Assembly: GCA_038869895.1 (NCBI GenBank)
Contig: JAWCQE010000001.1
Span: 121,879-185,878, forward strand
Source: Candidatus Pacearchaeota archaeon
Lineage (GTDB): Archaea; Nanobdellota; Nanobdellia; Pacearchaeales; GW2011-AR1
Length of the DNA stretch: 64,000 nt
Reading direction: 5' to 3'
Below, piece by piece: positions 1-55,873 of the stretch; within the stretch, counting starts at the first letter, position 1; each line of letters starts with the position of its first letter. The position numbers and the translations under genes are program-made. Under the pieces are notes generated by a model. It saw only the letters and a program-made list of their open reading frames with translations, was not told where the DNA came from and made no database searches.

Positions 1-330
1 CGAAGGGTTCTTTGGCAATTGAGTAATGGCATGAGAGCTGGAAGTGATATTAGTGTTGTTGTAAAAGAAGAGATAAAAAATCTTGGAGAGGAACAGGCAA
101 TACAGATACAAAGTTATGGAGGTAAATTAAATCCTTTGGTTATGTTTTTTATGATTATCGCAGTAATTCTTCCGACTCTGGGAACAACATTCTTAATAAT
201 AATTGCTTCAATTATTGGCATTTCCGGAAATATGGTGAAATTAATGTTTATATCAATATTCATTTTTATATTGTTTGTCCAAATAATGTTTCTTGGACTA
301 ATTAAATCTAGGAGGCCAAGCTTAATATGA
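1..330 (+). CDS. T2SS-F domain (TadB/TadC/FlaJ-like) pilus platform membrane protein, C-terminal fragment; the 5' end lies outside the window
   Basis: Frame 1 is open from nt 1 (RRVLWQLSNGMRAGSD...), so the Met at 19 is internal. A soluble loop is followed by two hydrophobic helices, as at the end of a T2SS-F repeat. The stop overlaps the next start (ATGA at 327-330). Confidence 0.55.
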   Translation, partial: RRVLWQLSNGMRAGSDISVVVKEEIKNLGEEQAIQIQSYGGKLNPLVMFFMIIAVILPTLGTTFLIIIASIIGISGNMVKLMFISIFIFILFVQIMFLGLIKSRRPSLI

Positions 331-1289
331 ATACTTTGAGATTTTATCCGGAATCTGTAAGGATAATTTACGAGAAAAATATAAAAAATTCTGGAATTAA
401 AATTTCTCCTGAAAAATTCCACAATAGGGTAATTTTAATTTCATTTTTAGCTATGGTTATTGCATCAACAATATTTTATTTTTTTAACATTAATATGTTT
501 TATTCAGTCATTATTTTTATATTACTAAATATTTTTTTCTATTTTAACATAAGTTTAAGAGCAAGCACAAGAATAAGGAAGATGGAGGAAGTTTTTCCTG
601 ACGTAATTTCTTTAACTGCAAGCAATTTGAGATCTGGGATTACTATTGATAGAGCATTTTTACTTTCCTCAAGGCCGGAATTTTCTCCTTTAGATGAAGA
701 GATTCTTAAAACTGGAAAAGATATAGCAACAGGAAAAGACATTTCATATTCTCTAAAAAAAATGAGTGAAAGAATAAATTCAGAAAAAATATCAAAAGTG
801 GTTACATTAATAACTTCTGGATTAAAATCTGGAGGGAATATTGCAGATTTGCTTGAACAGACTTCAAGTAATATGAAAGAAAAAGAATTTATAGAAAAAA
901 GAGTTGCCTCAAATATTTTAATGTACGTCATATTCATATTTTTTGCCATTGGTATTGGGGCACCAGTATTATTTGCGCTTAGTTCTGTCCTCGTTGATGT
1001 AATGCTTAATATAACTTCCAAAATTCCCGAGATACCATCCTCTCAACTTCAATTGCCTTTAACATTTAAACAAATTCCAGTTTCGCCAAATTTTGTTATG
1101 TATTTTGGTATACTTTTTATGTTAGTTACTGATTTAATATCAAGTCTTGTGATAGGATTTGTAAATAAAGGAGATGGAAAATCAGGACTTAAGTATTTTA
1201 TTCCACTTGTAACTTTTTCTTTATTAGTTTACTTTTTTGTTAAAAAAATAATCTCGAAATTTGTTATAGATTCTATCTCGGGAATCTAG
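327..1289 (+). CDS. T2SS-F domain (TadC/FlaJ-like) polytopic pilus platform membrane protein
   Basis: There are N-terminal TM helices. The cytoplasmic helical domain reads EEVFPDVISLTASNLRSGITIDRAF...ITSGLKSGGNIADLLEQTS, the typical GspF/T2SS-F signature, and is followed by C-terminal TM helices. The gene is translationally coupled to the upstream fragment. Confidence 0.65.
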   Translation: MNTLRFYPESVRIIYEKNIKNSGIKISPEKFHNRVILISFLAMVIASTIFYFFNINMFYSVIIFILLNIFFYFNISLRASTRIRKMEEVFPDVISLTASNLRSGITIDRAFLLSSRPEFSPLDEEILKTGKDIATGKDISYSLKKMSERINSEKISKVVTLITSGLKSGGNIADLLEQTSSNMKEKEFIEKRVASNILMYVIFIFFAIGIGAPVLFALSSVLVDVMLNITSKIPEIPSSQLQLPLTFKQIPVSPNFVMYFGILFMLVTDLISSLVIGFVNKGDGKSGLKYFIPLVTFSLLVYFFVKKIISKFVIDSISGI

Positions 1290-1341
1290 CTTTGTTTAAA
1301 AGGAGAGATATGTTTAAAAATGACTTTTATTTTAAATTAAT

Positions 1342-2127
1342 ATGAAATTAAGAAAAAAGAGAAGTAATTCTAAGGTAAAAATTGGTAAGAAATTAAATAA
1401 AAAAAAGCAAAGTGAAAAAAATAAAAAAATAGATGAAAAATTAAAGAGAGTGTCAAGTGGGATTAAAAAATTTGACAAAATGACTTCTGGAGGTTTTGAA
1501 GAGAATTCAACGAATCTTGTTATTGGAGGAGATGGAAGCGGGAAAACCATCTTTGCCATGAGTTTTTTAATAGAAGGGATAAAAAGAGGAGAAAATGTCC
1601 TATATATAAATTTTGAGGAATCAAAGGAAAATTTTTTTAGAAATATGTTAGGACTTGGATGGGATTTAAGCAAGTTTGAAAGTTCTGGGAGATTCACTTT
1701 TCTTGAATATTCTCCTGAAAAAATAAAAATGATGATTGATGAAGGTGGAGGGGTTGTTGAGGAGATAATATTAAAAAATAAAATAAAAAGACTCGTAATT
1801 GATAGCTTGACAAGTTTTTTGATTTTATTTCCTTCAAAGCAACTTAAAAGACAAGCTATTTCATCTTTGTTTAATCTTATAGAAAAATGGGATTGTACAA
1901 GCATTTTGACTTTGCAGGAATTTTCAGAAGAAATTAAGAACAAAAGAGATTCTGAAGCAGAAAGCCAGGCAGATAGTATAATTCTTCTCTATCTTATAAA
2001 GGTAAAAAATGAAAGAAAAAGATTTATTGAAGTCTTAAAGATGAGGGGAACAAGACATTCAACAGGAACTTATGAATTCAAAATTAAAAAAGGAATTGAA
2101 ATAGGAAATAAGAAAATAATAAAATAA
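1342..2127 (+). CDS. KaiC/RecA-superfamily single-domain ATPase (FlaH-like)
   Basis: It has a Walker A motif GGDGSGKT, then ...YINFEES..., a Walker-B-like RLVIDSL and ...LKMRGT.H.. near the C-terminus, which is the KaiC/RadA-like pattern. It also has a Lys-rich N-terminal extension. Confidence 0.65.
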   Translation: MKLRKKRSNSKVKIGKKLNKKKQSEKNKKIDEKLKRVSSGIKKFDKMTSGGFEENSTNLVIGGDGSGKTIFAMSFLIEGIKRGENVLYINFEESKENFFRNMLGLGWDLSKFESSGRFTFLEYSPEKIKMMIDEGGGVVEEIILKNKIKRLVIDSLTSFLILFPSKQLKRQAISSLFNLIEKWDCTSILTLQEFSEEIKNKRDSEAESQADSIILLYLIKVKNERKRFIEVLKMRGTRHSTGTYEFKIKKGIEIGNKKIIK

Positions 2128-2137
2128 TTAAACGTAA

Positions 2138-2569
2138 TTAAACTGCATCAACTAGGTTTCCAGTCGATGTTAAATTAAGGGCACTTCCTTGCTTTTTGTA
2201 TGTTATCTTTATGTCTCCTTGGAATTTTTGTCCTGCAGTTAGCGTGCATGGAACAGTAAATGTTGTTAAATTTCCATTATTTATGTCTTGTGGAAGAGTT
2301 GGACTTACAGTTCCTGTACATCCTGCAACAGTTATATCTGTTATAGACAATTGTTCTCCAGCTCCATGTATTAATTCTAATTGTATACCAGACGTTTCGG
2401 CAACCCCATTACATGAAAAAGGGGGGCTAAGACTACATCTATTTGGTACATAAGTTTTTGGATTGAAAACTCCAAAAAATGCAAGAGCTGCAATGACTAT
2501 AACTGCTGCTAAAATAGCCCAGCCATACGTCATCAAAAATTCCATCGCGGCCTGTCCTCTTTTTTTCAT
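2138..2569 (-). CDS. Archaeal type IV pilin-like protein (class III signal peptide)
   Basis: The N-terminus MKKRGQAAMEFLMTYGWAILAAVIVIAALAFFGVF has a basic stretch, an RG|Q processing context and about 20 hydrophobic residues. The rest is a small Thr/Gly/Cys-containing domain. Confidence 0.75.
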   Translation of the reverse strand: MKKRGQAAMEFLMTYGWAILAAVIVIAALAFFGVFNPKTYVPNRCSLSPPFSCNGVAETSGIQLELIHGAGEQLSITDITVAGCTGTVSPTLPQDINNGNLTTFTVPCTLTAGQKFQGDIKITYKKQGSALNLTSTGNLVDAV

Positions 2570-2826
2570 AAGTAACCTCCTTTGTATTAAGATAATAAAA
2601 TTATGTTAAATTCGTTTATAAACATTTCTGTTAGTTGACTCTTTTATTATTAGTTAGTAGAAGATAATAAAGAGAGAAACCTTTGTCTTTTTTATAAAAG
2701 TTAATAGTGTAAAAACTGCTAATTTTTTGAATTTTACTTTTTCAAATCTTTATTAATACTTTTATTCTTTCAAATTAATCTTTGATAGATTTTTTTAATT
2801 GACAATATCCTTTTGAAATTATTGTT

Positions 2827-3744
2827 TTAAGAGGCTGTTGCGTTGTAAATTTCTAAATGTCCTGAATCGAGCTTAAACCATGATGGCATTCCTTGTATTT
2901 GATGTGGTTGTGGATTGAGTGATGAAAAGTATATATAGTCGACGATAGATTTTTGCTTTACTTGAATCCCTTGATTTTCTAATTTTGGTAAATATACAAG
3001 AGATTCAATCCCATATTGGTTTGGAGTAATTTTTCCTTCTATTCTGTCAAGAAAACTCGGAGATAAATTCGAGGAGATATAATATGAATTTTTAGTATGT
3101 TCAATAAGTACCGAGGTATTGTTGCTTGGAAAGGCATCGTATATTGTTTTATTTATTTTATTTGAAATCTTTCCATTAGTATTTATAAAATATATTGGAT
3201 CTTCAAATCCTTCAATTGGGATTGTTGCAGTTATATTTTGGATTTTATTCCATCTTGCAAGATTAGATTTATCCTCCATAATAAAATTTGAAATGAAGGT
3301 GATTTTGACATTCCAAGGGTCACTTTGGTATACATAAATTGAAGAATTTGACATGTTAATTATAACATTAATTTTTCCAGCCTTCTCATTTATTGAGTCA
3401 ATTAAATCTCTATATCTTGCCCCAAGTAAGATGTCATTCTCTTCACCATTAACCGTTCCATTAAAAAAAGATTCATTAAAAAAATAATTTATGTCATTGA
3501 TGTAATTGCCAGATTTTATTATCTCATCTTCAGCAATGAAAATTATTCTAAATCCAGAAATAAAAATCTGTCTTTCAAGATTTAATTCAATAGAATTAAG
3601 AAAATTTTCCATTGTTGAGATTCTTGTCGCAGTTGAGTACCTTTGTTGAGATATTGAAAATACTTCAAATGTAATAAAAATAAGTATAATTAAAAATATT
3701 GCTATTAAAGTCATTACTTGTGCTTTTTTATTTTTTATTTTCAT
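2827..3744 (-). CDS. Prepilin-like (class III signal peptide) minor pilin candidate
   Basis: The N-terminus MKIKNKKAQVMTLIAIFLIILIFITFEVF has a KKA|Q context plus a hydrophobic helix. It is the last gene of a same-strand run of pilin-like genes. Confidence 0.5.
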   Translation of the reverse strand: MKIKNKKAQVMTLIAIFLIILIFITFEVFSISQQRYSTATRISTMENFLNSIELNLERQIFISGFRIIFIAEDEIIKSGNYINDINYFFNESFFNGTVNGEENDILLGARYRDLIDSINEKAGKINVIINMSNSSIYVYQSDPWNVKITFISNFIMEDKSNLARWNKIQNITATIPIEGFEDPIYFINTNGKISNKINKTIYDAFPSNNTSVLIEHTKNSYYISSNLSPSFLDRIEGKITPNQYGIESLVYLPKLENQGIQVKQKSIVDYIYFSSLNPQPHQIQGMPSWFKLDSGHLEIYNATAS

Positions 3745-3745
3745 T

Positions 3746-6208
3746 TTATCTCCAAACTCTTACTTGTACTTCTGTATCCCATGTGAAAGGTATGCCTTGT
3801 ATTTCCGAAGTGGTTAATGAAATGTCATTCTCTGTAAATTTAGTTTCAATTTTATTGTTTGAATTTAAATCAAGGTTTGTTAGAAGTCTATAAATTGCGA
3901 GATTTATTGCATCATTATTATTATATGCTATTGAATGAGAAGTATAGGAGCATTCATTTTGGCCAGAGTAGTTTGACGGAACTAATATTGTTGAATTCTC
4001 TCCATTTTCAAATTCAATATTCCATGCACATCCTTCGGCACTTGCTACTATTGGGGAGAATGATAACATTTTTTTGACTACTCTGTAAATTATTTTATTG
4101 TGTTCAGAACCCCCTGTTGAATTGTTTGGATTTAGCGCTGTTGATATTCTTATTTTATTTTCTCCGCTTAATATTTTTTCTGAAGGAATATTGACTGCAA
4201 ATGGATCTCCTAAAAATATATATGGAAGATTAAATTTTGACAAGTCGAAAATTTCTTCCCAGATACTTAAATTATAATTGTAAATTTGGACTTTATCTGT
4301 CCATTTTGAGCCAGAATATGAGATTGCAATAATTTCATATGGAGTTACATCTTCTGGAATAAATAATTCTCCTTCTGAAATTGTATTCCCGAACTCTTCA
4401 GTTTCGGCACTTATTATTAATCCATAAGGTGTTGAATCGCTATAATTTAGTTTAATGTATGAATCTGGATAGAGTGTTGATTTTATATTTTCAGAAATAA
4501 TTGTCTGCTCAAAATAAAGTGAATTTAGGATATCTTCCGCTATTTCAGAATATACAGATATTAATTCTTCAATATTTGAATGATAATAATTACCATTCCC
4601 ACATGATGCCATTGATTGAAGTGTTGTTTCATCCGCATTATCTCCAAAACCAACTGTATGTATTGTAATATTATGGTTATTGTATGCTTCACAAGCTGCT
4701 CTTATTGCATCTGCTGTAGCGCTGTTACTTCCAGGATAACATGTTCCTTGCATATTTCCGTCAGTCATTACAATCATAAATTTTTTTCTTGATTGCATTG
4801 ACTGAGCGACGAAACTTCCTGTGGCATTTATTACCCCACAACATACACAATTTCCAGCTTTTGTAGTCCATGAATTTATTGTATTATTTAATGAAATTAT
4901 GTTATTTGAAAGAGGATGATAATTGTTTGGATTTACTCCGCTGTTGTATCCAACTAAACCAACTCTATTTAAATCTAATTCTAAAACTATCTCTATAAGT
5001 CTTCTATTGGCATTTCTTGCTAAATCTATCATTTTTATTCCAAGAGAAGGAATATTACTATTCATGCTTGAGGATAAATCAGTCACTGAAAAAATATCCG
5101 CCCCTATATTTTGAGTTATTTGATAAGAAACATTTTCAAGTCCGAGCCTCAAAGGGATTGTTTTTCTGCTTAATTTTGAATAATCAAACATTTGTGTTAA
5201 ATTTGAATTTGGTATGATAATCTCAAAATCCCTCCCTCCGCTATTTCCATTATAAATTGTTATATTTCCAATTGTCATAAAAATATTTTGTGAACTATTG
5301 TAATGCAGAAAAATTTCCATTGATGTAAGATTTCCTAAAATGTAAAAGCTATCATAAATATTAATTAGTCCATCTATTCCCGGTAAATTTTTTTTTGATT
5401 CAAGTGTAGTAAGTTCTTCTTCATTATAAATTATCTTAACAAATCCCCCTCCGATGAATAAATTTCCGTTTTTCCCAACAAAAGTTAATTTATTTTTTTC
5501 GTTGTTAACTTGTGATAGATTTCCGAGTATGACGAATTTGTAAATTTCATTTGATTGAATATCGTGTTCTCCTACAAACTGGTTATTTATATATAAATAA
5601 AAGTCTTCAGAGAATATAGCTTCAACATATATACTCTCTATTTTACCATCACTTTCGAGAGTTATATTGCCATCACCAACATAACCCCCAAAATAAATAT
5701 ATTTTACTTTACTTGAAGATGATAAAAAGGCTCTTGAAGAATATCCTTTAACAGATTCTCCTTGTTTTATCCCAGATATTATTTGACGAGATGTCCAAAC
5801 ATCTTCTGCTTCTGATATTTCTTTTGATGAATTTTCTGCAATTAAAACATTACTAAAATAAATGGCTATATTATCATTTAAATTTATTTCATTTAAAATC
5901 TCTTGAGTCATAAGTGTTGCTTCAGGTTTTGACAACGCATAAAATTCTCCAATTTGTTCGAGAACTGATTGATTCAAATCTTTTATTTTTCCTTCAGAGA
6001 TTAATTGATTCACATAATCATTATCAATTTTTCCTATTTCAAGAGATGAAAGAGAATTTAATAAATCTTGTTGGACATATTTTTGTGTTATTTTTTGGTT
6101 GGTAGGAGGAGTTACACTTAGAATCACGATAATTATAATTATTAGGGCTATAAGTGCATCTAAACTAAAATAATATCCTTTCTTCCCATTTATAAGGTTA
6201 AATTTCAT
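3746..6208 (-). CDS. Large prepilin-like protein with von Willebrand factor A (vWA) domain; candidate pilus-associated adhesin
   Basis: The N-terminus KKGYYFSLDALIALIIIIIVILSV is pilin-like. Residues ~370-560 read ...IFSVTDLSSSM...VGLVGYNS...FMIVMTDGN...IHTVGFG, which gives a DxSxS...T...D MIDAS pattern and the alternating beta-strand hydrophobics of a vWA fold. Confidence 0.65.
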   Translation of the reverse strand: MKFNLINGKKGYYFSLDALIALIIIIIVILSVTPPTNQKITQKYVQQDLLNSLSSLEIGKIDNDYVNQLISEGKIKDLNQSVLEQIGEFYALSKPEATLMTQEILNEINLNDNIAIYFSNVLIAENSSKEISEAEDVWTSRQIISGIKQGESVKGYSSRAFLSSSSKVKYIYFGGYVGDGNITLESDGKIESIYVEAIFSEDFYLYINNQFVGEHDIQSNEIYKFVILGNLSQVNNEKNKLTFVGKNGNLFIGGGFVKIIYNEEELTTLESKKNLPGIDGLINIYDSFYILGNLTSMEIFLHYNSSQNIFMTIGNITIYNGNSGGRDFEIIIPNSNLTQMFDYSKLSRKTIPLRLGLENVSYQITQNIGADIFSVTDLSSSMNSNIPSLGIKMIDLARNANRRLIEIVLELDLNRVGLVGYNSGVNPNNYHPLSNNIISLNNTINSWTTKAGNCVCCGVINATGSFVAQSMQSRKKFMIVMTDGNMQGTCYPGSNSATADAIRAACEAYNNHNITIHTVGFGDNADETTLQSMASCGNGNYYHSNIEELISVYSEIAEDILNSLYFEQTIISENIKSTLYPDSYIKLNYSDSTPYGLIISAETEEFGNTISEGELFIPEDVTPYEIIAISYSGSKWTDKVQIYNYNLSIWEEIFDLSKFNLPYIFLGDPFAVNIPSEKILSGENKIRISTALNPNNSTGGSEHNKIIYRVVKKMLSFSPIVASAEGCAWNIEFENGENSTILVPSNYSGQNECSYTSHSIAYNNNDAINLAIYRLLTNLDLNSNNKIETKFTENDISLTTSEIQGIPFTWDTEVQVRVWR

Positions 6209-6672
6209 TTCCAGACATAAAGATTAAATTTAATTAGTTTATTTTTATAGACGCTGATTCTTTCTATTTTTATTAAATTCTCAATTTTGGTTGAATTTAT
6301 TCTTCCAATATATTCTTTTTGAGTTCCATTGATTTCAAGATTGTCTATTGTAAAATAGAAATCGTCTTTGACTCCAAGACGTCTCTTTAGTAATTCATAA
6401 TTTGAATTGTAGAAGTTTTCTAATTTAGTTTGATTTATTATATTATCTGATAGAATTCCGCTTTCATCATTATTTAATATCAATTCTGAAGCAGTTCTTC
6501 CTTGATTAAGTAAGTCGTCAAGTTGATTCCCTGCTTGATTTGCATAGTTGATTGTAAATATAAAAAGCATGATTATGCCAGATGTAAATATAATCATTGC
6601 AATAATTATATCCAGACTCCATGCCTGTGCTTTCTTTTTATTTCCTTTATTGATTAAGATAAACTTCACCAT
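6205..6672 (-). CDS. Prepilin-like protein
   Basis: The N-terminus ...KGNKKKAQAWSLDIIIAMIIFTSGIIMLFIF has a KKA|Q context plus a hydrophobic helix. It overlaps both neighbouring genes, giving an operon-like arrangement. Confidence 0.5.
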   Translation of the reverse strand: MVKFILINKGNKKKAQAWSLDIIIAMIIFTSGIIMLFIFTINYANQAGNQLDDLLNQGRTASELILNNDESGILSDNIINQTKLENFYNSNYELLKRRLGVKDDFYFTIDNLEINGTQKEYIGRINSTKIENLIKIERISVYKNKLIKFNLYVWK

Positions 6673-7036
6673 TTTCTTTCTTTATAATATTTTCTCCTTT
6701 TAGTATCTCTCCGTTTACAGGAACAATATTATAAAGAACTCCAGTATCTTCAGTATACACATATATGCTGTTGTTTACAATTTTTACTTCATAGTTTTTT
6801 CCAATTATAGTTTGAGGGAGATTAAATTTTCGGGAATAACCATTTGATGATTTTGATGCAAGAGCTATTTCCTCTCTGACATTAAGAGCTATATTTTGGA
6901 CAATTATGTTTTCTTTTTCTTTGTTCTTTTCATTTATATTTCCAGATATCACTCCAAGGAATAAAACAAAGAAGAAAAGTATAGCTCCAAAAATAACAAT
7001 GAATTCTATAATCCCTTGTCCTCTTTTATTTTTCAT
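6647..7036 (-). CDS. Prepilin-like protein (class III signal peptide)
   Basis: The N-terminus MKNKRGQGIIEFIVIFGAILFFFVLFLGV has an RG|Q context. It is the first gene of the minus-strand pilin run. Confidence 0.6.
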   Translation of the reverse strand: MKNKRGQGIIEFIVIFGAILFFFVLFLGVISGNINEKNKEKENIIVQNIALNVREEIALASKSSNGYSRKFNLPQTIIGKNYEVKIVNNSIYVYTEDTGVLYNIVPVNGEILKGENIIKKENGEVYLNQ

Positions 7037-11525: not shown

Positions 11526-11597
11526 GGCTGCTTAGCTTAGTGGTAAAGCGCCGCTCTCATGAGGCGGAGATCCTGGGTTCAATCCCCAGAGCAGCCA
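11526..11597 (+). tRNA. tRNA-Met (anticodon CAT); an Ile2-type CAU tRNA cannot be excluded
   Basis: Hand-folded cloverleaf. The acceptor is GGCTGCT/AGCAGCC, the anticodon stem is CCGCT/GGCGG with loop CTCATGA, the T arm is CTGGG-TTCAATC-CCCAG, and the discriminator is A. No CCA is encoded. Confidence 0.85.
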
Positions 11598-12968: not shown

Positions 12969-13155
12969 TATGAATATTAATAATAAAGAGATATTAGATT
13001 TTGTAAAAAGTAAAAAGATAGTTACAAGTTCAGAAGTTGCGAAAAAATTTAATATTTCATGGAATACTGCAGATAAATATCTTCTTGAACTCGCATTTAA
13101 TGATAAAATCGAAAGAATTAAAAAAGAAGGGGTGAATTTATGGATTTTAAAATAA
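12958..13155 (+). CDS. Small winged-helix DNA-binding protein (65 aa)
   Basis: ...ILDFVKSKKIVTSSEVAKKFNISWNTADKYLLELAFNDKIERIKKEGVNLWIL follows the HTH-plus-wing pattern of small archaeal wHTH regulators. The start is ambiguous (ATG at 12958 or 12970). Confidence 0.5.
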   Translation: MLNNMNINNKEILDFVKSKKIVTSSEVAKKFNISWNTADKYLLELAFNDKIERIKKEGVNLWILK

Positions 13156-13970
13156 AAAGTCAGATAAGTAAAAAATCAGCTTGCAAGAAAGGACAGGTGA
13201 CAATTTTTGTTATTATCTCTCTTCTTCTTGTTGTTGCAATAATCCTATTATTTATCCTTTACAAAAATCAGCAGATTCCTGGAGTAAGAGTCGAAAAAAC
13301 TTCTGGCGAGGAACTCGAGTCTTGTATTAAATCTTATCTTGAAGAAGCAGTCGATTTAATTTTTGAAAATTCTGGGTATATTGAACTGCCGGAATTAACT
13401 TATCAAATAAGAAATATTTATGGATATTACAAACAAGAAAATGAAAAGAAAATCCCTTATTTGTGTTATACTGCAATTAATTATGTAAGATGCATTCCGC
13501 AAGAGCCTTTTTTTGTAAACCATATAGAAGATGAAATAAAAAATTTCATAATTCCAAAAGTTGAGATATGTTTTGAGAATTTAAGGAATAGATTGCAAGA
13601 AAGAAATTATGAAACAATGTTTGGTATAACAAAAAATTTAGATGTTGAATTAAATGAAAGAGGAGTCCAAATTTATATTGAAAAAGAAATTTCGCAAACA
13701 AAAGCAGAGAAAGAAGAACGTTTTAGCGAATTTAAGTCTAATTATAAGACAAGATTGTATGATGTAGCAAAAATATCTGAAAAAATTATCACAGAGGAGG
13801 TTAAATTTTGCAATTCTGATTATGTTGAAGTGATGAGAAATAATAAATTAATTGAAATAACAAAATTTCAGACAGGAGATGATGTTAAAGTTTATTCTGT
13901 TAAGGATTTACCTTCAAAGAAAGAATTTAAATTTGCTGTAAGGAACTGTGTCCTTGCAACTCCATCTTAA
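13140..13970 (+). CDS. Prepilin-like protein, module A; paralog of 17934-18734
   Basis: The N-terminus ...SACKKGQVTIFVIISLLLVVAIILLFILY has a KG|Q context plus a hydrophobic helix. It appears to align end to end with the 17934 ORF, for example at ...PYLCYT..NY..C..Q and at the C-terminal F(K/N)FAVR. Confidence 0.55.
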   Translation: MDFKIKSQISKKSACKKGQVTIFVIISLLLVVAIILLFILYKNQQIPGVRVEKTSGEELESCIKSYLEEAVDLIFENSGYIELPELTYQIRNIYGYYKQENEKKIPYLCYTAINYVRCIPQEPFFVNHIEDEIKNFIIPKVEICFENLRNRLQERNYETMFGITKNLDVELNERGVQIYIEKEISQTKAEKEERFSEFKSNYKTRLYDVAKISEKIITEEVKFCNSDYVEVMRNNKLIEITKFQTGDDVKVYSVKDLPSKKEFKFAVRNCVLATPS

Positions 13971-13971
13971 A

Positions 13972-16900
13972 ATGAATAAAAAGTTTATCGCAGGAATTGA
14001 AATTTTTCTTGTCATAAGCATGGCTGTTTCATTTTCATGGATTCTAGGAAATATTTATGGGACTTCTCCAGATATAAAAAGTTTATTAGAATTTATAACA
14101 ATAATTCCAAGTGTTTCTGCCCAAACAACTACATCATGTTGTCTTAATTTGAAAAGCGGAGCCAGTTGTACTGACATTCCATCTGATTCATGTTCTGATA
14201 TTTGTGATGGAAATTGTGTTTCAGGGACAACATGTTCTCAACTAAGGGAATGCAATCTTGGATGTGGATTTAATTCTGATGAAGGAACATGCACTCCAAA
14301 TACTCCAAGGGTACTATGTGAAGGAGATGAGGGCTGTGAATTTCTTGATGACCCTTTTTGCAACAATCAAAAATGTGAAATTGGATGTTGTGTTCTTGGA
14401 TTGAGTGCGAATTTGGAGACGAGAACTGGATGTGAAATACAATCTTTAAGAAGAGGAGTATCATTTGAATTTGACAGTTCAATAAAAGATGGCGTTCAAT
14501 GTTTGAATAAGGGTAAAACAAGTGAGGGAGCTTGTGTTGTAAATTTTGGAGAAGAAAAAAATAACTGCATTTTTACAACACAAAGTGAGTGTGTCAACAA
14601 TATAAAAGGAGTTTTTTATGAAGGCTATCTTTGTTCTCATCCAGAACTTAAAACAATATGTGTGAAGCAGTCAAGAGTAAGTTGTTTTGACAATAGGGAT
14701 GAGGTATATTGGTATGATTCATGTGGGAATAGAGAAAATATTTATTCATCAAATAGGGCAAGTTCATGGAATAATGGATTCGTCTTATCGAAAGAGAAAT
14801 CATGCAATCCTAATTCTTCAAATGAAAATTCAGGAAGCTGTGGAAATTGTAATTATAATCTTGGAAGTATATGCGGAGAGTTTAGGCCTGGAGTTGATTC
14901 TGGAAATATGGAAGGTTATACTTGTAGAAATTTAAACTGCATTGATTCAAAAGGAAAACAAAGAACAAACGGAGAATCATGGTGTGTTTATGATGGAACT
15001 ATAGGCGGAGGAAGTATACTTGAAGGGAAGAGTGGGGGATTATTATCAAAAATAGCTGGAGGATTATTGGAGGGAGAGGTTGCATTATTAAGCACTGATT
15101 TAGTAGGGAGCAGACATTTTAGGCAGGTATGTGTTAATGGAAAAGTAGAGGTAGAACCATGCGCTGATTATAGGAAGGAGATATGTGTCCAGAATGATAA
15201 ATCCCTTGATAATGGAAGAAAGATTGATAATGCAATATGTAGGATGAATTTATGGGAACAATGTATTTCATACAATCAAGGAAATGAGGGATGTGGGCCA
15301 GGATGTTTAACCAAATGTGTGAAAAATCCAGATTGTAGGATTCATCCTGTTTTTGTTGACTCTCGTTTTAAATTTAATGCTTGTGTCCCAAAATATCCTC
15401 CTGGATTTGATTTAGGAAGTACAAGCGGAGTAGATAGTTTTGTAAGAAATTATGTATCAAGTTCTATTAGTGATTTGGATGGAGGTGGGGTTCTTTCAAA
15501 ATTATCAGGAAGTTTAAGTTCTGAGAATTCTGCAGGAAGCATTTGTTCTTTAGCATCGCAAAAATGCACTAGTATATGGACTAAGACATGCGGACTATCA
15601 GGAATTCATTGGGAATGCACGAAAAACTGCAAATGCCATACTGAATCTTTTACAATTCAGATGAATAATCTTTGTGTTTCTCTTGGAGATTGTGGAGTTT
15701 ATGCAAATTATGAAGGAAAGGTTACTCCTGGTGGAGCTTATGTAACAAAGAAAGGAGGACATGGAAGGACCCCTCTACAACCATTTATTTTGATTCCAGT
15801 TTATGCTGTTTTAGTTAAAATATTAAAACCAACTCCTCCAAGTGGTGGATTTTTTCGAGATGAGAAAGACATAGTGAATTTTCCAACTGAAATTATTGAT
15901 CCATTCTTAGGAGGGTATAATAGAATAGATGTAGGGAAACTGCCAAGTCAGTTGGATAATATGCTTGGAAGCCAGTTAGGAACAACTATCGGAGCAGGAG
16001 TTGCTGGAGGACTTGTAGGAGGGGTAGTTGCAGGACTAGGAGGAGTTACAGCTGCAGGTCTTGGAGTTATTGGGGCTGCTACACAAGGAATATTATGGGC
16101 ACCAATTATTTTTCCAACAGGGGGGGTGGGTATGTTACAAATACCAGTTACTTTTTATGCTCCCACTAACAATATCCTTTCAACTGTATTTCACGGACAT
16201 TATTTAGGTAAACCATTTTTCGGATTTGATCCTTTATCAATTGCAATTGGAATCGCAGTTGGAATCGCGATTACTTATCTTATTGGATGTGGAAAAGTTA
16301 AGACAGTTGATATCAAATTTCAGTGTTTACCTTGGCAAAGGCCAAAAGGCGGGACTGATTGTGAGAAATGTGATGATGACCCTTTGAAACCATGTTCAAG
16401 GTATAGGTGTGAATCTCTTGGAGCAAGATGCACTTTGATAAATGAAGGAAAAGGAGATGTATGCGTAAGTGTTTCTGGGGAAAGTTCTATACCAGTAATT
16501 AGTCCATGGGAAGAGATACTCAATACCTCTTTTTATAGGTATGAAGACATAAGTCCTAATGGATTTAAAATAAGAACAAAAGATGGACAGTGTATACAGG
16601 CATTTACTTATTTAGTTTTTGGAGTTGAAACAGATGTTTATTCGGAGTGTTTCTGGAGTTTAGAACCATTTGCATATGAAAATAAATCAGAGGCAAATTT
16701 ATTTTTAGAAGGAAATCTTTTAACTAAAAATCATACAATGCTAACTTTATTGCCAAGTGTTGAAAGTTTATTGGCTAATGAAATTAATAACCAAGAAGAA
16801 TTGGGACAGGCATTGGAAACAACAACAGAACAGGACATCAGCGCCAGGCAATACATATTAAATCGATTAGGAGATTTAAATATCTATGTAAAATGCGCAA

Positions 16901-17898
16901 ACCTTGATGGAAAAGCCAACGACCAGGATTATAAAATAAACTTCTGTGTGTCTCCTGGGCCAGATATACAAGAACCGGTAATAATTGCGTCTTCTCCTCC
17001 GCAGAACAACTTCACAAAATTTGATGCAACAGAACAAGAAGCTTTCTTTTTTATTTCAGAACCAGCTGAATGTAGATGGGATAGTACGAGGCAAGTTATA
17101 TCAAATGAATTAGAATCATATAATTCATTGAGAAATGAAATGGAATGTAGTGTTGATTTAGATGAAAGTACAATACTTGGATGGCCGTGCAATGCAACTC
17201 TTCCAATAACAGGCGAGGAAAATAGATTTTTTATTCAATGTCGAGACCAGCCGTGGCTTGGAAATAATAACTCAAGAAACATAGGAGACATTTTTGAATA
17301 TTCGTTAAAAAGAAGTAATTCTGAATTAAAAATAACTTCTATTAAACCTAATGAAAAAGTCTTTGCAGGAAGTGAACCTATTATGATTGAATTGGAAGTT
17401 GAGACATCAGGAGGAGTTGAAAATGGAAACGCTTTCTGCAAATATAGTTTTGACAATAATCAATTTGTAAATTTCAGAATTACAGGCGAGAAAGTTCATA
17501 GCCAAATTCTAAATCAGATGAGAAAAGGAGATTATAAAGTTTATATTCAGTGTAATGATTTTGCAGGAAATGTTGCAGAAGGCATTGGGGAGTTCTCATT
17601 AGAACTTGATACTAAAGCCCCTGTTATAACAAGAGTTTTTAGTAATGCTAACACTTTATTCATTACAACAGATGAAGAGGCAAAGTGTTTTTATAAGAAT
17701 GAATCTGATGTAGGATGTAATTTTCCGTTAAATAATGTTACTGAATTTAATATTACTGAATTTACAAAGAATGGAAATATTCACTCAACTCCTTTAATAA
17801 AAGGAAAGAGTTACTATATAAAATGCGAAGATATTTGGAGCAATAGAGCTGAGAGTTGTTCTATTGTTGTAAGGAGTTTTGAAAATTTTGCAAGTTAA
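13972..17898 (+). CDS. Giant Cys-rich envelope protein (fused form): signal peptide, Cys-rich ectodomain, Gly-rich TM region, Cys-knot-like segment and four beta-sandwich-like repeats
   Basis: The ORF-track frame is 13948-17898. I prefer the ATG at 13972, directly after the upstream stop, which gives MNKKFIAGIEIFLVISMAVSF. The predicted cleavage is VSA|QTTTSCC. Its halves are homologous to the 618-aa and 694-aa ORFs downstream. No family was recognised. Confidence 0.7.
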   Translation: MNKKFIAGIEIFLVISMAVSFSWILGNIYGTSPDIKSLLEFITIIPSVSAQTTTSCCLNLKSGASCTDIPSDSCSDICDGNCVSGTTCSQLRECNLGCGFNSDEGTCTPNTPRVLCEGDEGCEFLDDPFCNNQKCEIGCCVLGLSANLETRTGCEIQSLRRGVSFEFDSSIKDGVQCLNKGKTSEGACVVNFGEEKNNCIFTTQSECVNNIKGVFYEGYLCSHPELKTICVKQSRVSCFDNRDEVYWYDSCGNRENIYSSNRASSWNNGFVLSKEKSCNPNSSNENSGSCGNCNYNLGSICGEFRPGVDSGNMEGYTCRNLNCIDSKGKQRTNGESWCVYDGTIGGGSILEGKSGGLLSKIAGGLLEGEVALLSTDLVGSRHFRQVCVNGKVEVEPCADYRKEICVQNDKSLDNGRKIDNAICRMNLWEQCISYNQGNEGCGPGCLTKCVKNPDCRIHPVFVDSRFKFNACVPKYPPGFDLGSTSGVDSFVRNYVSSSISDLDGGGVLSKLSGSLSSENSAGSICSLASQKCTSIWTKTCGLSGIHWECTKNCKCHTESFTIQMNNLCVSLGDCGVYANYEGKVTPGGAYVTKKGGHGRTPLQPFILIPVYAVLVKILKPTPPSGGFFRDEKDIVNFPTEIIDPFLGGYNRIDVGKLPSQLDNMLGSQLGTTIGAGVAGGLVGGVVAGLGGVTAAGLGVIGAATQGILWAPIIFPTGGVGMLQIPVTFYAPTNNILSTVFHGHYLGKPFFGFDPLSIAIGIAVGIAITYLIGCGKVKTVDIKFQCLPWQRPKGGTDCEKCDDDPLKPCSRYRCESLGARCTLINEGKGDVCVSVSGESSIPVISPWEEILNTSFYRYEDISPNGFKIRTKDGQCIQAFTYLVFGVETDVYSECFWSLEPFAYENKSEANLFLEGNLLTKNHTMLTLLPSVESLLANEINNQEELGQALETTTEQDISARQYILNRLGDLNIYVKCANLDGKANDQDYKINFCVSPGPDIQEPVIIASSPPQNNFTKFDATEQEAFFFISEPAECRWDSTRQVISNELESYNSLRNEMECSVDLDESTILGWPCNATLPITGEENRFFIQCRDQPWLGNNNSRNIGDIFEYSLKRSNSELKITSIKPNEKVFAGSEPIMIELEVETSGGVENGNAFCKYSFDNNQFVNFRITGEKVHSQILNQMRKGDYKVYIQCNDFAGNVAEGIGEFSLELDTKAPVITRVFSNANTLFITTDEEAKCFYKNESDVGCNFPLNNVTEFNITEFTKNGNIHSTPLIKGKSYYIKCEDIWSNRAESCSIVVRSFENFAS

Positions 17899-17933
17899 AT
17901 TTATAAAGAAATTTGTTTTTAGAAGGTAATAGA

Positions 17934-18734
17934 ATGATTAAATCAAAAAACAAAAGAGGACAGACAACAATCTTTGTTATCTTAGCAGTAGTTATTGTTG
18001 CAGTCATAGTGATTTTTTTTGCAGTTACGGATATAGGGAGAGAAACTTTTGAAAAAATCTCTAATATTGTTGGCAGTGATGAGATTAATGTTAAAGAAGA
18101 ATTGAATAAATGTTTTATTGATAACAGCGAAATCAATAAAAAAATAAATCTAATTATGTCACAGGGAGGAAGTATTGAACCTTCTTTATTTTTTCTTCAT
18201 AATGGAACGAAATTAAGTTATTTATGTTATACTAATGAATTTTATAAGACATGTGTAAATCAGCAGCCTTTAATATTACAACATACAAAGAATGAGATAA
18301 ATAGGGCAATTCTTCCAGAAATAGATAAATGTATTTCTTCATTAAAAGCCAATTTTGAAAAAAGAGGATATCAAATAAGAGGACAGAATTTCGAGAGTTC
18401 AATAGATATAATTCACAACAACATAATTATTAAAATAAATTTCCCTCTAACTATCAAAAAGGGGGATTTAACACAGACATTTGAAAATTTTGAAATAAAA
18501 AAACATAGCCAGTATTATCAATTATTAAGTGTTGCAACATCAATTGTAAATTTTGAATCCCAATATGGCGATAGTGATCCAGTTTTATATATGTCTCTTT
18601 ATCCGAATACAAGAGTTGAAAAATTAAAACAAGGAGATGGGACAACAATTTATAAGATTAGTGATAGGGAAACAATGGAAACTTTTAACTTTGCTGTAAG
18701 AAGTTTGGCTTTGCCTATAGGATATGGATTATAA
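17934..18734 (+). CDS. Prepilin-like protein, module B; paralog of 13140-13970
   Basis: The N-terminus is MIKSKNKRGQTTIFVILAVVIVAVIVIFFAV, with an RG|Q context. The ATG at 17934 is preceded by GAAGGT. The ORF-track start at 17913 is a TTG. Confidence 0.55.
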   Translation: MIKSKNKRGQTTIFVILAVVIVAVIVIFFAVTDIGRETFEKISNIVGSDEINVKEELNKCFIDNSEINKKINLIMSQGGSIEPSLFFLHNGTKLSYLCYTNEFYKTCVNQQPLILQHTKNEINRAILPEIDKCISSLKANFEKRGYQIRGQNFESSIDIIHNNIIIKINFPLTIKKGDLTQTFENFEIKKHSQYYQLLSVATSIVNFESQYGDSDPVLYMSLYPNTRVEKLKQGDGTTIYKISDRETMETFNFAVRSLALPIGYGL

Positions 18735-25159: not shown

Positions 25160-25648
25160 ATGAAAAGAGGACAATTTCAACTTGGATTTGGAATGATTTT
25201 CTCTATTATATTGATAATTGCATTTATAATTGTTGCATTTATTGCTTTCAAAGCTTTTTTTGGAGTGAGGTGTTCTACTGAACAAGGAAGATTTATTTAT
25301 GAACTTCAGAATGAAATTGACAGGATATGGAAAGGCTCGGGCGAGGATAGGATTAAGGAATTTAAAATTTTAGGATGTGATTTTGATTATGTTTGTTTTT
25401 GGGATCCAAATGTTCCTTCAAGAGGAAATTTCAGAACTTTTGAAGACGATTTCAGTATTTTTACAGGAGATGAAGGAAACCATAATTTATATTTTTATCC
25501 AAGAAAAAAAGTAGAAATTTCTTCAACCTTGATAAAGCATATTAATATGGATTTTAGAGAGAATCCTGTATGTTTTAGAAACGAGGAGAATTCTGTTAAA
25601 ATAAGACTCAGCAAAAACATTGACGAAGATTTAGTAAGAGTCTCATAA
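25160..25648 (+). CDS. Prepilin-like protein (class III signal peptide)
   Basis: The N-terminus MKRGQFQLGFGMIFSIILIIAFIIVAFIAF has an RG|Q context. It is the first gene of a tightly packed four-gene run. Confidence 0.6.
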   Translation: MKRGQFQLGFGMIFSIILIIAFIIVAFIAFKAFFGVRCSTEQGRFIYELQNEIDRIWKGSGEDRIKEFKILGCDFDYVCFWDPNVPSRGNFRTFEDDFSIFTGDEGNHNLYFYPRKKVEISSTLIKHINMDFRENPVCFRNEENSVKIRLSKNIDEDLVRVS

Positions 25649-37171: not shown

Positions 37172-37197
37172 TTAGTGTTTAGTTTAATCCATTGAGG

Positions 37198-40020
<2,823 letters not shown>

Positions 40021-54904: not shown

Positions 54905-55873
54905 TTAAATTAGATATGCGACAATCATCCCCGCAAATAATCCGCCAGTTATAAACGGCATTGCAGGATAAAATTTACCTTTTTGTGAGTAAATAAATAA
55001 AAGCAACAATGCTATAGTAGCTCCAAGAACGACTACTAAAGCATGAAAAATTCCGAGAGAACGTAAAATAATGCCTGCAGTTATTATTGGAAAGACAACA
55101 TCTCCCCCACCAAGTATTGCGAGATTAATTCTTATTTTTTTCTCGTCTATTTTTTTACCTTTTTTCATTTCCTTTTTTGCCTCTCTAATTTTTTCCCTTT
55201 GTTTTTTGTTTAAATAAGGAATAAAAAACCCTCCAAAAATTTTTAGTTCATTAATCTGAAATTTTGCCATTTTCTGCATAAATCCAGAATGCCATACTGC
55301 CCATGCATCATATAAAGAGATTAAAATTAAAAGGATAATTATTGTCCAAACAGAAAGCAAAGGAACGAAAACCGCTGCGATTCCTGGATAAATTAAAAGT
55401 TCTGTAAAGTTATGGACTAAAATATTTCTTTTGAAAATTTTGTAAATTGCAAGGGGGAGTGCAATAACTAGGGCTAGTAAGGCCGAAATAGAATAGTTAT
55501 AGTTGCCTATTAAAAATGAATTTGGAATAATCTGTATAAGGAAAGCATTAAAAGTTATTCCTAATACTAAAGTTACGATGATAAAAAACCATGCCTTAAT
55601 GAATATTGCTGCCTTGAATTTCATAAGAATTAGAATTATAAATATTGCAATTACAAATGCTATAATAATTGAAGTTAAAGAAGTTTTTTTATTTATTTCT
55701 TCAGGCGGCTCTAAATTGTATGGTAGCGGATTTGTTGTTACATTGACAATATTTCCATCAACTTCCACTTGTTTTACATTTGGAGTATATGCATAAATAA
55801 CAGCCAACCCTATTAACTGGGTTATTAAAAACATTAAAATTAAAATAAATGTTATTTTAATATTGTGTTTCAT
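54905..55873 (-). CDS. Presenilin/signal-peptide-peptidase homolog (A22 intramembrane aspartyl protease)
   Basis: It is polytopic, with LISLYDAWAVW (YD), a Lys-rich loop, LGGGDVVFP (GxGD) and a C-terminal YPAMPFITGG (PAL-like) motif. Confidence 0.75.
   Translation of the reverse strand: MKHNIKITFILILMFLITQLIGLAVIYAYTPNVKQVEVDGNIVNVTTNPLPYNLEPPEEINKKTSLTSIIIAFVIAIFIILILMKFKAAIFIKAWFFIIVTLVLGITFNAFLIQIIPNSFLIGNYNYSISALLALVIALPLAIYKIFKRNILVHNFTELLIYPGIAAVFVPLLSVWTIIILLILISLYDAWAVWHSGFMQKMAKFQINELKIFGGFFIPYLNKKQREKIREAKKEMKKGKKIDEKKIRINLAILGGGDVVFPIITAGIILRSLGIFHALVVVLGATIALLLLFIYSQKGKFYPAMPFITGGLFAGMIVAYLI

Follow-up and report, generated by a model that had tools for sequence, protein, structure and literature searches.

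A candidate pilus-associated adhesin with a von Willebrand factor A domain, encoded in a type IV pilus-like locus conserved in DPANN archaea

Introduction

At the tip of bacterial pili, the presence of proteins with a vWA domain (von Willebrand factor type A) is already well established. PilB of S. sanguinis is a bimodular pilin, of which the vWA module was found to bind host proteins (PMC8179133; structures 7B7P and 7BA2 in the PDB), and for Tad pili a minor-pilin-like vWA protein, designated CpaL in Caulobacter and TadG in Aggregatibacter, has been modelled at the tip together with CpaJ and CpaK (10.1101/2025.02.12.637803). A preliminary description of the DNA studied here had referred to such vWA proteins in bacterial Tad and type IV pili. 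The present work deals with an 820-aa vWA protein encoded within a stretch of 64,000 nucleotides from a Candidatus Pacearchaeota archaeon (assembly GCA_038869895.1, contig JAWCQE010000001.1, positions 121,879 to 185,878), and this whole stretch is referred to as the window. With a probability of about 0.55, the protein is considered to be an extracellular, pilus-associated, minor-pilin-like adhesin of a type IV pilus-like apparatus that is conserved in DPANN archaea, the evidence for the family being computational throughout. What would be new is the DPANN-wide archaeal variant.

Pacearchaeota have been reported to be strongly attached to their hosts, and pili-like appendages were observed on ultrasmall cells which are presumed to belong either to the Candidate Phyla Radiation (CPR) or to DPANN (PMC7906910). 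The available censuses of archaeal type IV filament (TFF) systems describe adhesin-like or PilY-like components (PMC4858521; 10.64898/2026.04.22.720090). In the census of 2016, vWA proteins were discussed only as regulators and as the bacterial TadG, and Makarova et al. were unable to identify the pilins cognate to one clade of nanoarchaeal ATPases (PMC4858521). A preprint of 2026, in the text of which the terms 'vWA' and 'von Willebrand' are absent, places DPANN loci that contain a pair of platform genes in TFF system 1 (Epd-like) or in subsystem 4A (10.64898/2026.04.22.720090). In the literature covered, to which subscription journals did not belong, neither a vWA pilin from DPANN or other archaea nor a corresponding link to pili was found to be described. 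For the way in which DPANN archaea recognize and grip their hosts, no adhesin has to our knowledge been named so far. The protein family described below is a concrete and widely conserved candidate.

Conservation of the pilus locus

An open reading frame (ORF) at 3746-6208 had been listed in the preliminary description. It exists and codes for 820 aa, but it is located on the minus strand, since the translation of the plus strand is full of stop codons. The genes surrounding it are given below, with the putative cleavage sites of the pilin-like proteins marked by a slash.

19..330, plus strand: 3' part of a first TadC-like platform gene (T2SSF, from Pfam), cut by the start of the window
327..1289, plus strand: second TadC-like platform gene (T2SSF; PF00482, E=6e-16)
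1342..2127, plus strand: gene for a KaiC-family ATPase (PF06745, E=6e-54)
2138..2569, minus strand: gene for a 143-aa candidate major pilin; KKRG/QAAMEFLMTYGWAIL, Glu at +5, N-terminus almost invariant across loci
2827..3744, minus strand: gene for a 305-aa pilin-like protein; NKKA/QVMTLIA, no acidic residue, start 1 nt past the stop codon of the vWA gene
3746..6208, minus strand: gene for the 820-aa vWA protein; KKG/YYFSLD, Asp at +6
6205..6672, minus strand: gene for a 155-aa pilin-like protein; KKKA/QAWSLD, Asp at +6, overlapping the start of the vWA gene by 4 nt
6647..7036, minus strand: gene for a 129-aa pilin-like protein; KRG/QGIIEF, Glu at +5, weak matches to DUF7266 and to a class III signal

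Four of these genes overlap or abut each other and form an operon on the minus strand, which is followed after a gap of 257 nt by the fifth pilin-like gene. All five pilin-like proteins begin with signals of the type [KR][GA]-hydrophobic. The platform genes and the KaiC gene, present on the plus strand, converge on this operon.

The gene context of the homologs P0008 and P0017 was examined alongside the window, and the comparison was extended to 82 loci, 78 of them from species-representative genomes and four from metagenomes, in which neighbours were scored by tblastn. Almost all of these loci are labelled Pacearchaeota, Woesearchaeota, Nanoarchaeota/Nanoarchaeia or Aenigmatarchaeota, with one Nanohalarchaeota and one Micrarchaeota locus. 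A homolog of the 305-aa gene was identified in 70 of the 82 loci and a homolog of the 155-aa gene in 64; where seen, the former lies directly downstream and the latter directly upstream of the vWA gene. Homologs of the 129-aa pilin (58/82) and of the 143-aa pilin (52/82) were also found, as was a further pilin with Glu at +5, designated p158 (57/82). The machinery is represented by a T2SSE secretion ATPase in 55 loci, by the two TadC-like T2SSF genes in 55 and 53 loci, and by KaiC in 42. Many of the misses fall at the ends of contigs. The N-terminal signature of each pilin-like family is kept across the loci.

The locus set as a whole consists of three pilins with Glu at +5, two proteins with Asp at +6 and one protein without an acidic residue. 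In bacteria, a complex for priming or for the tip is built from minor pilins, and its top-most subunit (GspK/PilX type) does not contain the conserved Glu. By analogy, the archaeal set appears to parallel such complexes. This genomic context is the strongest new evidence for a role of the vWA protein in the pilus. The location of KaiC next to the TadC-like genes, in the window as in L001, L005, L006 and other loci, further suggests that it is a conserved regulatory or accessory ATPase of the pilus system.

All but four of the loci carry the label DPANN or unclassified archaeon. The other labels are Elusimicrobia (L047, MNXB01000016.1), Pseudobdellovibrionaceae (L060), Methanosarcinales (L069) and an unspecified metagenome-assembled genome (MAG). 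L047 and L048 (Pacearchaeota UBA92) give identical matches at a constant offset of 116 nt, and the oddly labelled contigs look misbinned. At positions 1112-3201 of locus L003, a second T2SSE ATPase gene was identified after a 177-aa ORF, the N-terminus of which (KKRGQVWIETVIYTLIAF, with Glu at +5) is of the bacterial pilin style. This additional ATPase and pilin may belong to a further filament system next to the conserved locus.

Domain organization and N-terminus of the 820-aa protein

An identical protein is deposited at NCBI as 'VWA domain-containing protein [Candidatus Pacearchaeota archaeon]', and its vWA domain is by this label not new. An AlphaFold2 model calculated with 52 homologs as input (mean pLDDT 84.3) and the alignment of these sequences gave the following organization of the polypeptide, all on the minus strand. 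Positions 4529-5101, at which the domain had been noted before, correspond to residues 370-560.

6176..6208, minus strand: leader MKFNLINGKKG, short and basic, a putative class III signal peptide with a predicted cut after Gly11 (from the sequence)
6110..6175, minus strand: hydrophobic N-terminal helix YYFSLDALIALIIIIIVILSVT (AlphaFold2 helix H16-32, alignment)
5714..6109, minus strand: N-terminal globular module, residues 34-165, with four short helices and beta strands (AlphaFold2)
5114..5713, minus strand: all-beta domain, residues 166-365 (AlphaFold2, alignment)
4514..5113, minus strand: vWA domain, residues 366-565 (Pfam, AlphaFold2, Foldseek, profile alignment)
5066..5080, minus strand: DxSxS motif of the metal ion-dependent adhesion site (MIDAS), with D377, S379 and S381; DLSSS = D377-S381 (alignment of 52 homologs)
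4850..4852, minus strand: Asn453 at the canonical position of the MIDAS Thr, followed by the invariant C454-x-C456-C457 (profile alignment)
4757..4768, minus strand: MTDG, residues 481-484, with the invariant MIDAS Asp483 (alignment)
3749..4513, minus strand: C-terminal beta-rich domains, residues 566-820 (AlphaFold2, alignment)

The all-beta domain in front of the vWA domain is kept at a length of 194-207 aa in the family. The C-terminal domains are well conserved and contain the invariant residues Cys727 and Cys753. In the alignment of 52 homologs all eight cysteines of the protein, at positions 454, 456, 457, 490, 506, 536, 727 and 753, are invariant. The density of N-glycosylation sequons amounts to 2.2 per 100 aa, and the FtsY, KaiC and T2SSF proteins of the window reach 0.4-0.8. 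An extracellular location would agree with both observations.

The N-terminus reads MKFNLINGKKG/YYFSLDALIALIIIIIVILSV (in a fuller stretch MKFNLINGKKG/YYFSLDALIALIIIIIVILSVTPP) and consists of a basic leader ending in [KR]-[GA] and about 20 hydrophobic residues. A pattern of [KR][KR][GA], [YVA][FY][FY]S[LT]DA, a hydrophobic stretch and a Pro was identified in 115 of 120 homologs. Asp17, at +6 counted from the putative cleavage site, shows no variation among 41 N-terminal sequences and almost none among the 52, and Pro34, located after the helix, is nearly invariant. A pilin fold, in which a long helix at the N-terminus packs against an antiparallel sheet, was not detected for the N-terminal module. 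A separate AlphaFold2 model of residues 1-170 (pLDDT 79.6) gave no match with Foldseek (best E=3.8). When compared by hhalign, the module showed a weak similarity to the neighbouring 155-aa family (probability 65%, E=6e-5), and with the 305-aa family the signal peptide alone was aligned. Of the prepilin-like N-terminus proposed earlier, the signal motif and the hydrophobic helix were therefore recovered, and a match to the Pfam signal model and a pilin fold were not. The term 'pilin-like' is accordingly used here for a protein that resembles pilins in its signal motif, its hydrophobic helix and its gene context, and not in its globular fold.

The same N-terminus can be read in a second way, in which the hydrophobic helix is an uncleaved signal anchor and the protein, tethered to the membrane, serves the pilus machine as an accessory or anchor, but is no subunit of the filament. 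It would then be located at the base of the pilus or on the nearby cell surface, where it would aid assembly or cell-proximal adhesion. Consistent with this are the N-terminal module without a detected pilin fold, a motif which, with Tyr/Phe at +1 to +3 and with Asp at +6, deviates from the class III signals typical of archaea, and the bulk of 820-1700 aa, which is hard to fit into a filament except at its tip; an anchoring function has also been hypothesized for TadG, as cited by Makarova et al. (PMC4858521). However, the conserved [KR][KR][GA] is located exactly in front of a hydrophobic stretch with an invariant acidic residue, which is the pattern of processed pilins, and the identical SLD/xxD pattern is found in the adjacent 155-aa protein. 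Moreover, models or observations now place the bacterial analogues PilB and CpaL/TadG in the fibre (PMC8179133; 10.1101/2025.02.12.637803). An anchor without a place in the filament is thus regarded as unlikely.

The vWA domain and its MIDAS

With Pfam, the vWA domain is recognized as VWA (PF00092) at residues 371-544 (E=3.7e-11, 44 bits, gathering cut-off 23.8), and VWA_2 and VWA_3 match more weakly. The AlphaFold2 model shows the classic alternation of beta strands and alpha helices from E370-377 to H546-563. A Foldseek search against the PDB returned vWA structures at a probability of 1.0, with TM-scores of about 0.7-0.8 when normalized to single-domain targets, among them the inter-alpha-inhibitor heavy chain, BatB, the integrin alpha-M I domain and vWF A3. 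Pilus adhesins were also among these matches, namely S. sanguinis PilB, the type V tip protein Mfa5 and SpaC, as was the vWFA domain of LapA. A profile of the domain, searched against the PDB, matched Mfa5 and the cell-wall surface anchor family proteins 3tw0, 2ww8 and 3txa, which we take to be the sortase-pilus adhesins GBS104 and RrgA. A phmmer search of the full-length protein against PDB sequences gave no match. Because of the Pfam, AlphaFold2 and Foldseek results, the vWA domain is genuine and not a chance resemblance, and the fold with its alternating strands, deduced before from the sequence pattern, is confirmed.

The known archaeal vWA proteins tied to type IV pili or archaella either act as regulators, for instance ArnB, or occur together with MoxR/GvpN (PMC4858521), and the best sequence-level match in the PDB is 4rck, a membrane-spanning vWA protein. 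The 820-aa protein might by these examples be a cytoplasmic or MoxR-linked regulator of the ArnB or BatA type, which would have no direct role in the pilus. Its topology is different, with an N-terminal signal or transmembrane (TM) helix, invariant cysteines, a high sequon density and beta-sandwich domains, and its context is different as well: neither an FHA protein (ArnA) nor MoxR/GvpN was found among the called genes of the homolog loci L001-L004, and ArnA and ArnB have been reported never to occur in type IV pilus loci (PMC4858521), in one of which the vWA gene is always present. Both the ArnB-like and the BatA/MoxR-like readings were rejected on these grounds of topology and context and are considered highly improbable.

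The MIDAS of the domain is largely preserved. DLSSS, the DxSxS motif, is present at D377-S381 and MTDG at residues 481-484, as had been noted, and D377, S379, S381 and D483 are invariant in 52 full-length homologs. The downstream Thr which the preliminary description had included among the MIDAS residues could not be confirmed for this protein. In the profile alignment, the family motif GGT-C-x-C-C-G aligns on the canonical Thr of the solved vWA domains 4rck, 7w6b and Mfa5, and the window protein contains AGNCVCCG at this site, so that Thr is replaced by Asn453. Thr is present at the position in 49 of the 52 aligned homologs. In a larger set of 120 homologs, Thr was counted in 113, Asn in five (the window protein and four relatives) and Ile in one, the motif not being found in the remaining sequence. 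The five MIDAS residues are in this way kept in the family, and four of the five are kept in the window protein. The outcome named beforehand as speaking against the domain, namely no vWA match and MIDAS residues not conserved in homologs, was looked for and was not what was found.

The replacement of the Thr goes along with a second difference. In most relatives, DxSxS is followed by a Cys-rich insert that adds up to about 60 residues and that the window protein does not have, and all Asn and Ile variants have a short, cysteine-free loop at this position. The group with a reduced site comprises P0001-P0003, P0080, P0084 and P0095, P0001 being the window protein. In P0095, which also has the short loop, the MIDAS Asp, the last Ser and the Thr are gone ('TSISGGM'), while the rest of the protein is kept. 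As judged from these alignments, the MIDAS is conserved in the family and reduced in the lineage of the window protein. Since the site is reduced, with Asn453 and without the Cys-rich loop, binding in this lineage may be weaker, metal-independent or differently specific.

Family size, variable loops and nested domains

When 1.84 billion representatives of clusters at 50% identity were searched with a profile, 830 proteins were identified at E<=1e-30. They are derived from MAGs labelled Pacearchaeota, Woesearchaeota, Nanoarchaeota, Aenigmatarchaeota and others. In the alignment of 52 sequences, all domains except the vWA domain are nearly constant in length. The insertions and deletions are gathered in two loops of the vWA domain, one after DxSxS with 10-76 aa (16 aa in the window protein) and one after MSDG with 16-53 aa. 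By the topology of the vWA fold, both loops would flank the MIDAS.

Larger insertions were found in addition. Among the best 150 representatives, 65 exceed a length of 960 aa, with a maximum of 1727 aa, and DxSGS and MSDG are kept in the long homologs (16 checked). In these proteins, the insert is located between the helix after the MIDAS Thr and strand beta4, at about residues 466-472 of the query, and contains nested domains of the LamG/ConA-like lectin type (PF13385) and of the CARDB type (PF07705). An initial assignment of the LamG insertion to the MIDAS face was withdrawn, the site being an alpha-to-beta connection and thus on the opposite face by vWA topology. Since the insertion site and the MIDAS would be at opposite ends of the sheet, the inserts would represent extra binding modules rather than a remodelling of the metal site. 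The nested LamG and CARDB domains fit the role of an adhesin.

Loops, inserts and MIDAS together also bear on the possibility that the protein serves mainly for mechanosensing or for the regulation of pilus dynamics, as has been proposed for PilY1 and CpaL. The vWA domain would then sense force, or prime and gate assembly, and the protein would not be the host-specific adhesin. Such a function would agree with the retention of the protein despite a degenerate MIDAS (Asn453 in the window protein, the broken site of P0095), with the invariant place of its gene between two minor-pilin-like genes, as expected of a priming complex, and with the invariant cysteines, a disulphide of PilY1 having been linked to mechanosensing (10.1101/2025.02.12.637803). 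The variable loops and the nested LamG/CARDB modules point to ligand binding instead, and no downstream signalling partner is evident except KaiC. While sensing as the main function is regarded as quite unlikely, a mechanosensor role would be compatible with adhesion.

Proposed role in the pilus

For the pilus-associated adhesin, the following mechanism is proposed. A class III signal peptidase would remove the short basic leader ending in Lys-Lys-Gly, and the cleavage would leave a hydrophobic N-terminal helix with the invariant Asp at +6. By means of the N-terminal helices, the 820-aa protein would join the 155-aa and 305-aa pilin-like proteins to a priming or tip complex, which would be built on the two-protein TadC-like platform, with a T2SSE-type ATPase driving assembly. 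The pilins with Glu at +5 (143 aa and 129 aa) would then lengthen the filament from underneath. The beta-rich domains would serve as a stalk presenting the vWA domain, and its MIDAS-type face, with the lectin/CARDB modules of the relatives, would bind a ligand on the surface of the host cell. We infer in this scheme that the signal is cleaved, that the protein is incorporated into the filament, that binding depends on a metal and that the host provides the ligand. A strict location at the tip is held with less confidence than the adhesin reading as a whole. The earlier designation of the protein as a candidate pilus tip adhesin is supported in part, by the vWA domain, the MIDAS of the family, the conserved signal-like N-terminus, the pilus locus and the lectin-bearing relatives; the pilin fold and the MIDAS Thr of this particular protein did not come up to it.

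Several observations weigh against the adhesin role in the pilus. At E<=0.1, the protein matched neither the Pfam model of the class III signal (PF04021, Class_IIIsignal) and the NCBIfam pilin models nor the TadE/G-like domains of Pfam, which we take to be PF07811 and PF13400. The acidic residue of the helix is Asp at +6 versus the typical Glu at +5, a feature which is common to the neighbouring 155-aa family. No recognizable A24 prepilin peptidase was found in the 64-kb window by a motif and TM search, an absence which says little about the whole genome. With respect to ligand binding, Asn453 and the broken MIDAS of P0095 suggest a role beyond metal-dependent adhesion, because P0095 keeps the remaining protein, which thus seems to be needed for more than metal-dependent binding. 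Finally, the insertion site of the LamG and CARDB domains would be located on the face opposite the MIDAS, as deduced from standard vWA topology.

In an extended and more tentative form of the proposal, which is possible but rather doubtful at present, the vWA protein and the 155-aa and 305-aa proteins would be the DPANN-wide counterpart of the minor-pilin/PilY1 or CpaJKL tip complex, which would both prime the pilus and set the host. Host range might then be tuned by the Cys-rich MIDAS loops and the nested LamG/CARDB domains, and a shared ancestry with TadG of the Tad system would be conceivable. If this were true, the tip complex would decide to which host an episymbiont attaches. The vWA gene has a fixed position in the pilus locus. 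The lectin-bearing variable regions of its product could encode host specificity.

Other features of the window

Outside the pilus locus, the following features were identified in the window.

13140-13970, plus strand: ORF with the class III signal-like N-terminus KKGQVTIFVIISLLLV, flanking the 1316-aa ORF
13948-17898, plus strand: 1316-aa ORF with 72 cysteines and no Pfam match
17913-18734, plus strand: ORF with the class III signal-like N-terminus KRGQTTIFVILAVVIV, flanking the 1316-aa ORF
25160-25648, plus strand: stand-alone 162-aa ORF with the pilin-like N-terminus MKRGQFQLGFGMIF and no Pfam match
37181-40015, minus strand: complete archaeal large subunit (LSU) rRNA gene (Rfam RF02540, 2264 bits)
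54905-55873, minus strand: gene for a GxGD aspartyl protease of 322 aa with multiple TM segments (PF06550, E=2.4e-14; YD and GGGD motifs)

The plus-strand region 13140-18734 may represent a second surface cluster. The LSU rRNA gene explains the GC peak at 38-40 kb. Genes for small subunit (SSU) and 5S rRNA were not found within the 64-kb window, and the rRNA genes therefore appear to be unlinked. Four tRNA genes are located at 11526, 12058, 41118 and 50338. The protease encoded at 54905-55873 was considered as an A24 prepilin peptidase and rejected, since it is of the presenilin or signal-peptide-peptidase type.

Comparison with known systems

With S. sanguinis PilB, which has been proposed as a tip adhesin (PMC8179133), the 820-aa protein has in common an N-terminal class III signal, putative in the archaeal protein, a vWA domain with a MIDAS and a gene located among those for minor pilins. 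The vWA domain of PilB superposes on that of the window protein with Foldseek E-values of about 4e-10 to 1.5e-9. However, PilB consists of a canonical pilin fold connected to the vWA domain by a short linker, whereas the archaeal protein contains an unmatched module and a 200-aa beta domain at this place and, unlike PilB, has a region of 255 aa after the vWA domain. It further differs in its archaeal-type signal with Asp at +6 and in the TCxCC motif which the family contains at the MIDAS Thr (with Asn in the window protein). Sequence homology between the two proteins is limited to the vWA domain.

CpaL/TadG is likewise a large minor-pilin-like protein, the vWA-MIDAS domain of which is broken by beta-rich inserts. 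It is encoded together with the two small minor pilins CpaJ and CpaK, and the locus of the window contains in a similar way two platform genes and small pilins. The Tad machine has the two platform proteins TadB and TadC, and an archaeal (Epd-like) ancestor has been proposed for the bacterial Tad pili. The 820-aa protein is distinguished from TadG/CpaL by the absence of a TadE/G-like Pfam domain, by a different order of domains and by its occurrence in DPANN MAGs, and the likeness would be one of function and architecture only. Membership in the PilB or CpaL/TadG families is not supported: neither a TadE/G domain nor a canonical pilin module was found, the domains are arranged differently and homology is confined to the vWA domain.

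PilY1/PilC of type IVa pili is comparable as a tip-associated adhesin and mechanosensor with a vWA domain which acts together with minor pilins. With its ordinary signal peptide, PilY1 does not belong to the pilins, and it contains a C-terminal beta-propeller. This propeller was not found in the 820-aa protein, the Pfam matches of which are to vWA families only. Some of the best matches by structure and by profile are to the sortase-dependent and type V tip adhesins (RrgA, GBS104, SpaC and EbpA; Mfa5), which present the vWA domain on a stalk of beta-sandwiches and surround the MIDAS with additional arms. Their assembly chemistry, by sortase or by protease-mediated strand exchange, is unrelated, and the likeness is one of convergence and not of membership.

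The closest loci are those of archaeal TFF system 1 (Epd-like) and subsystem 4A, which contain in the same way an ATPase, two TadC-like genes, several proteins with class III signals and KaiC. If the 820-aa protein is indeed the adhesin of such a system, the principle of a 'modular pilin with a vWA module' would extend from bacteria to archaea.

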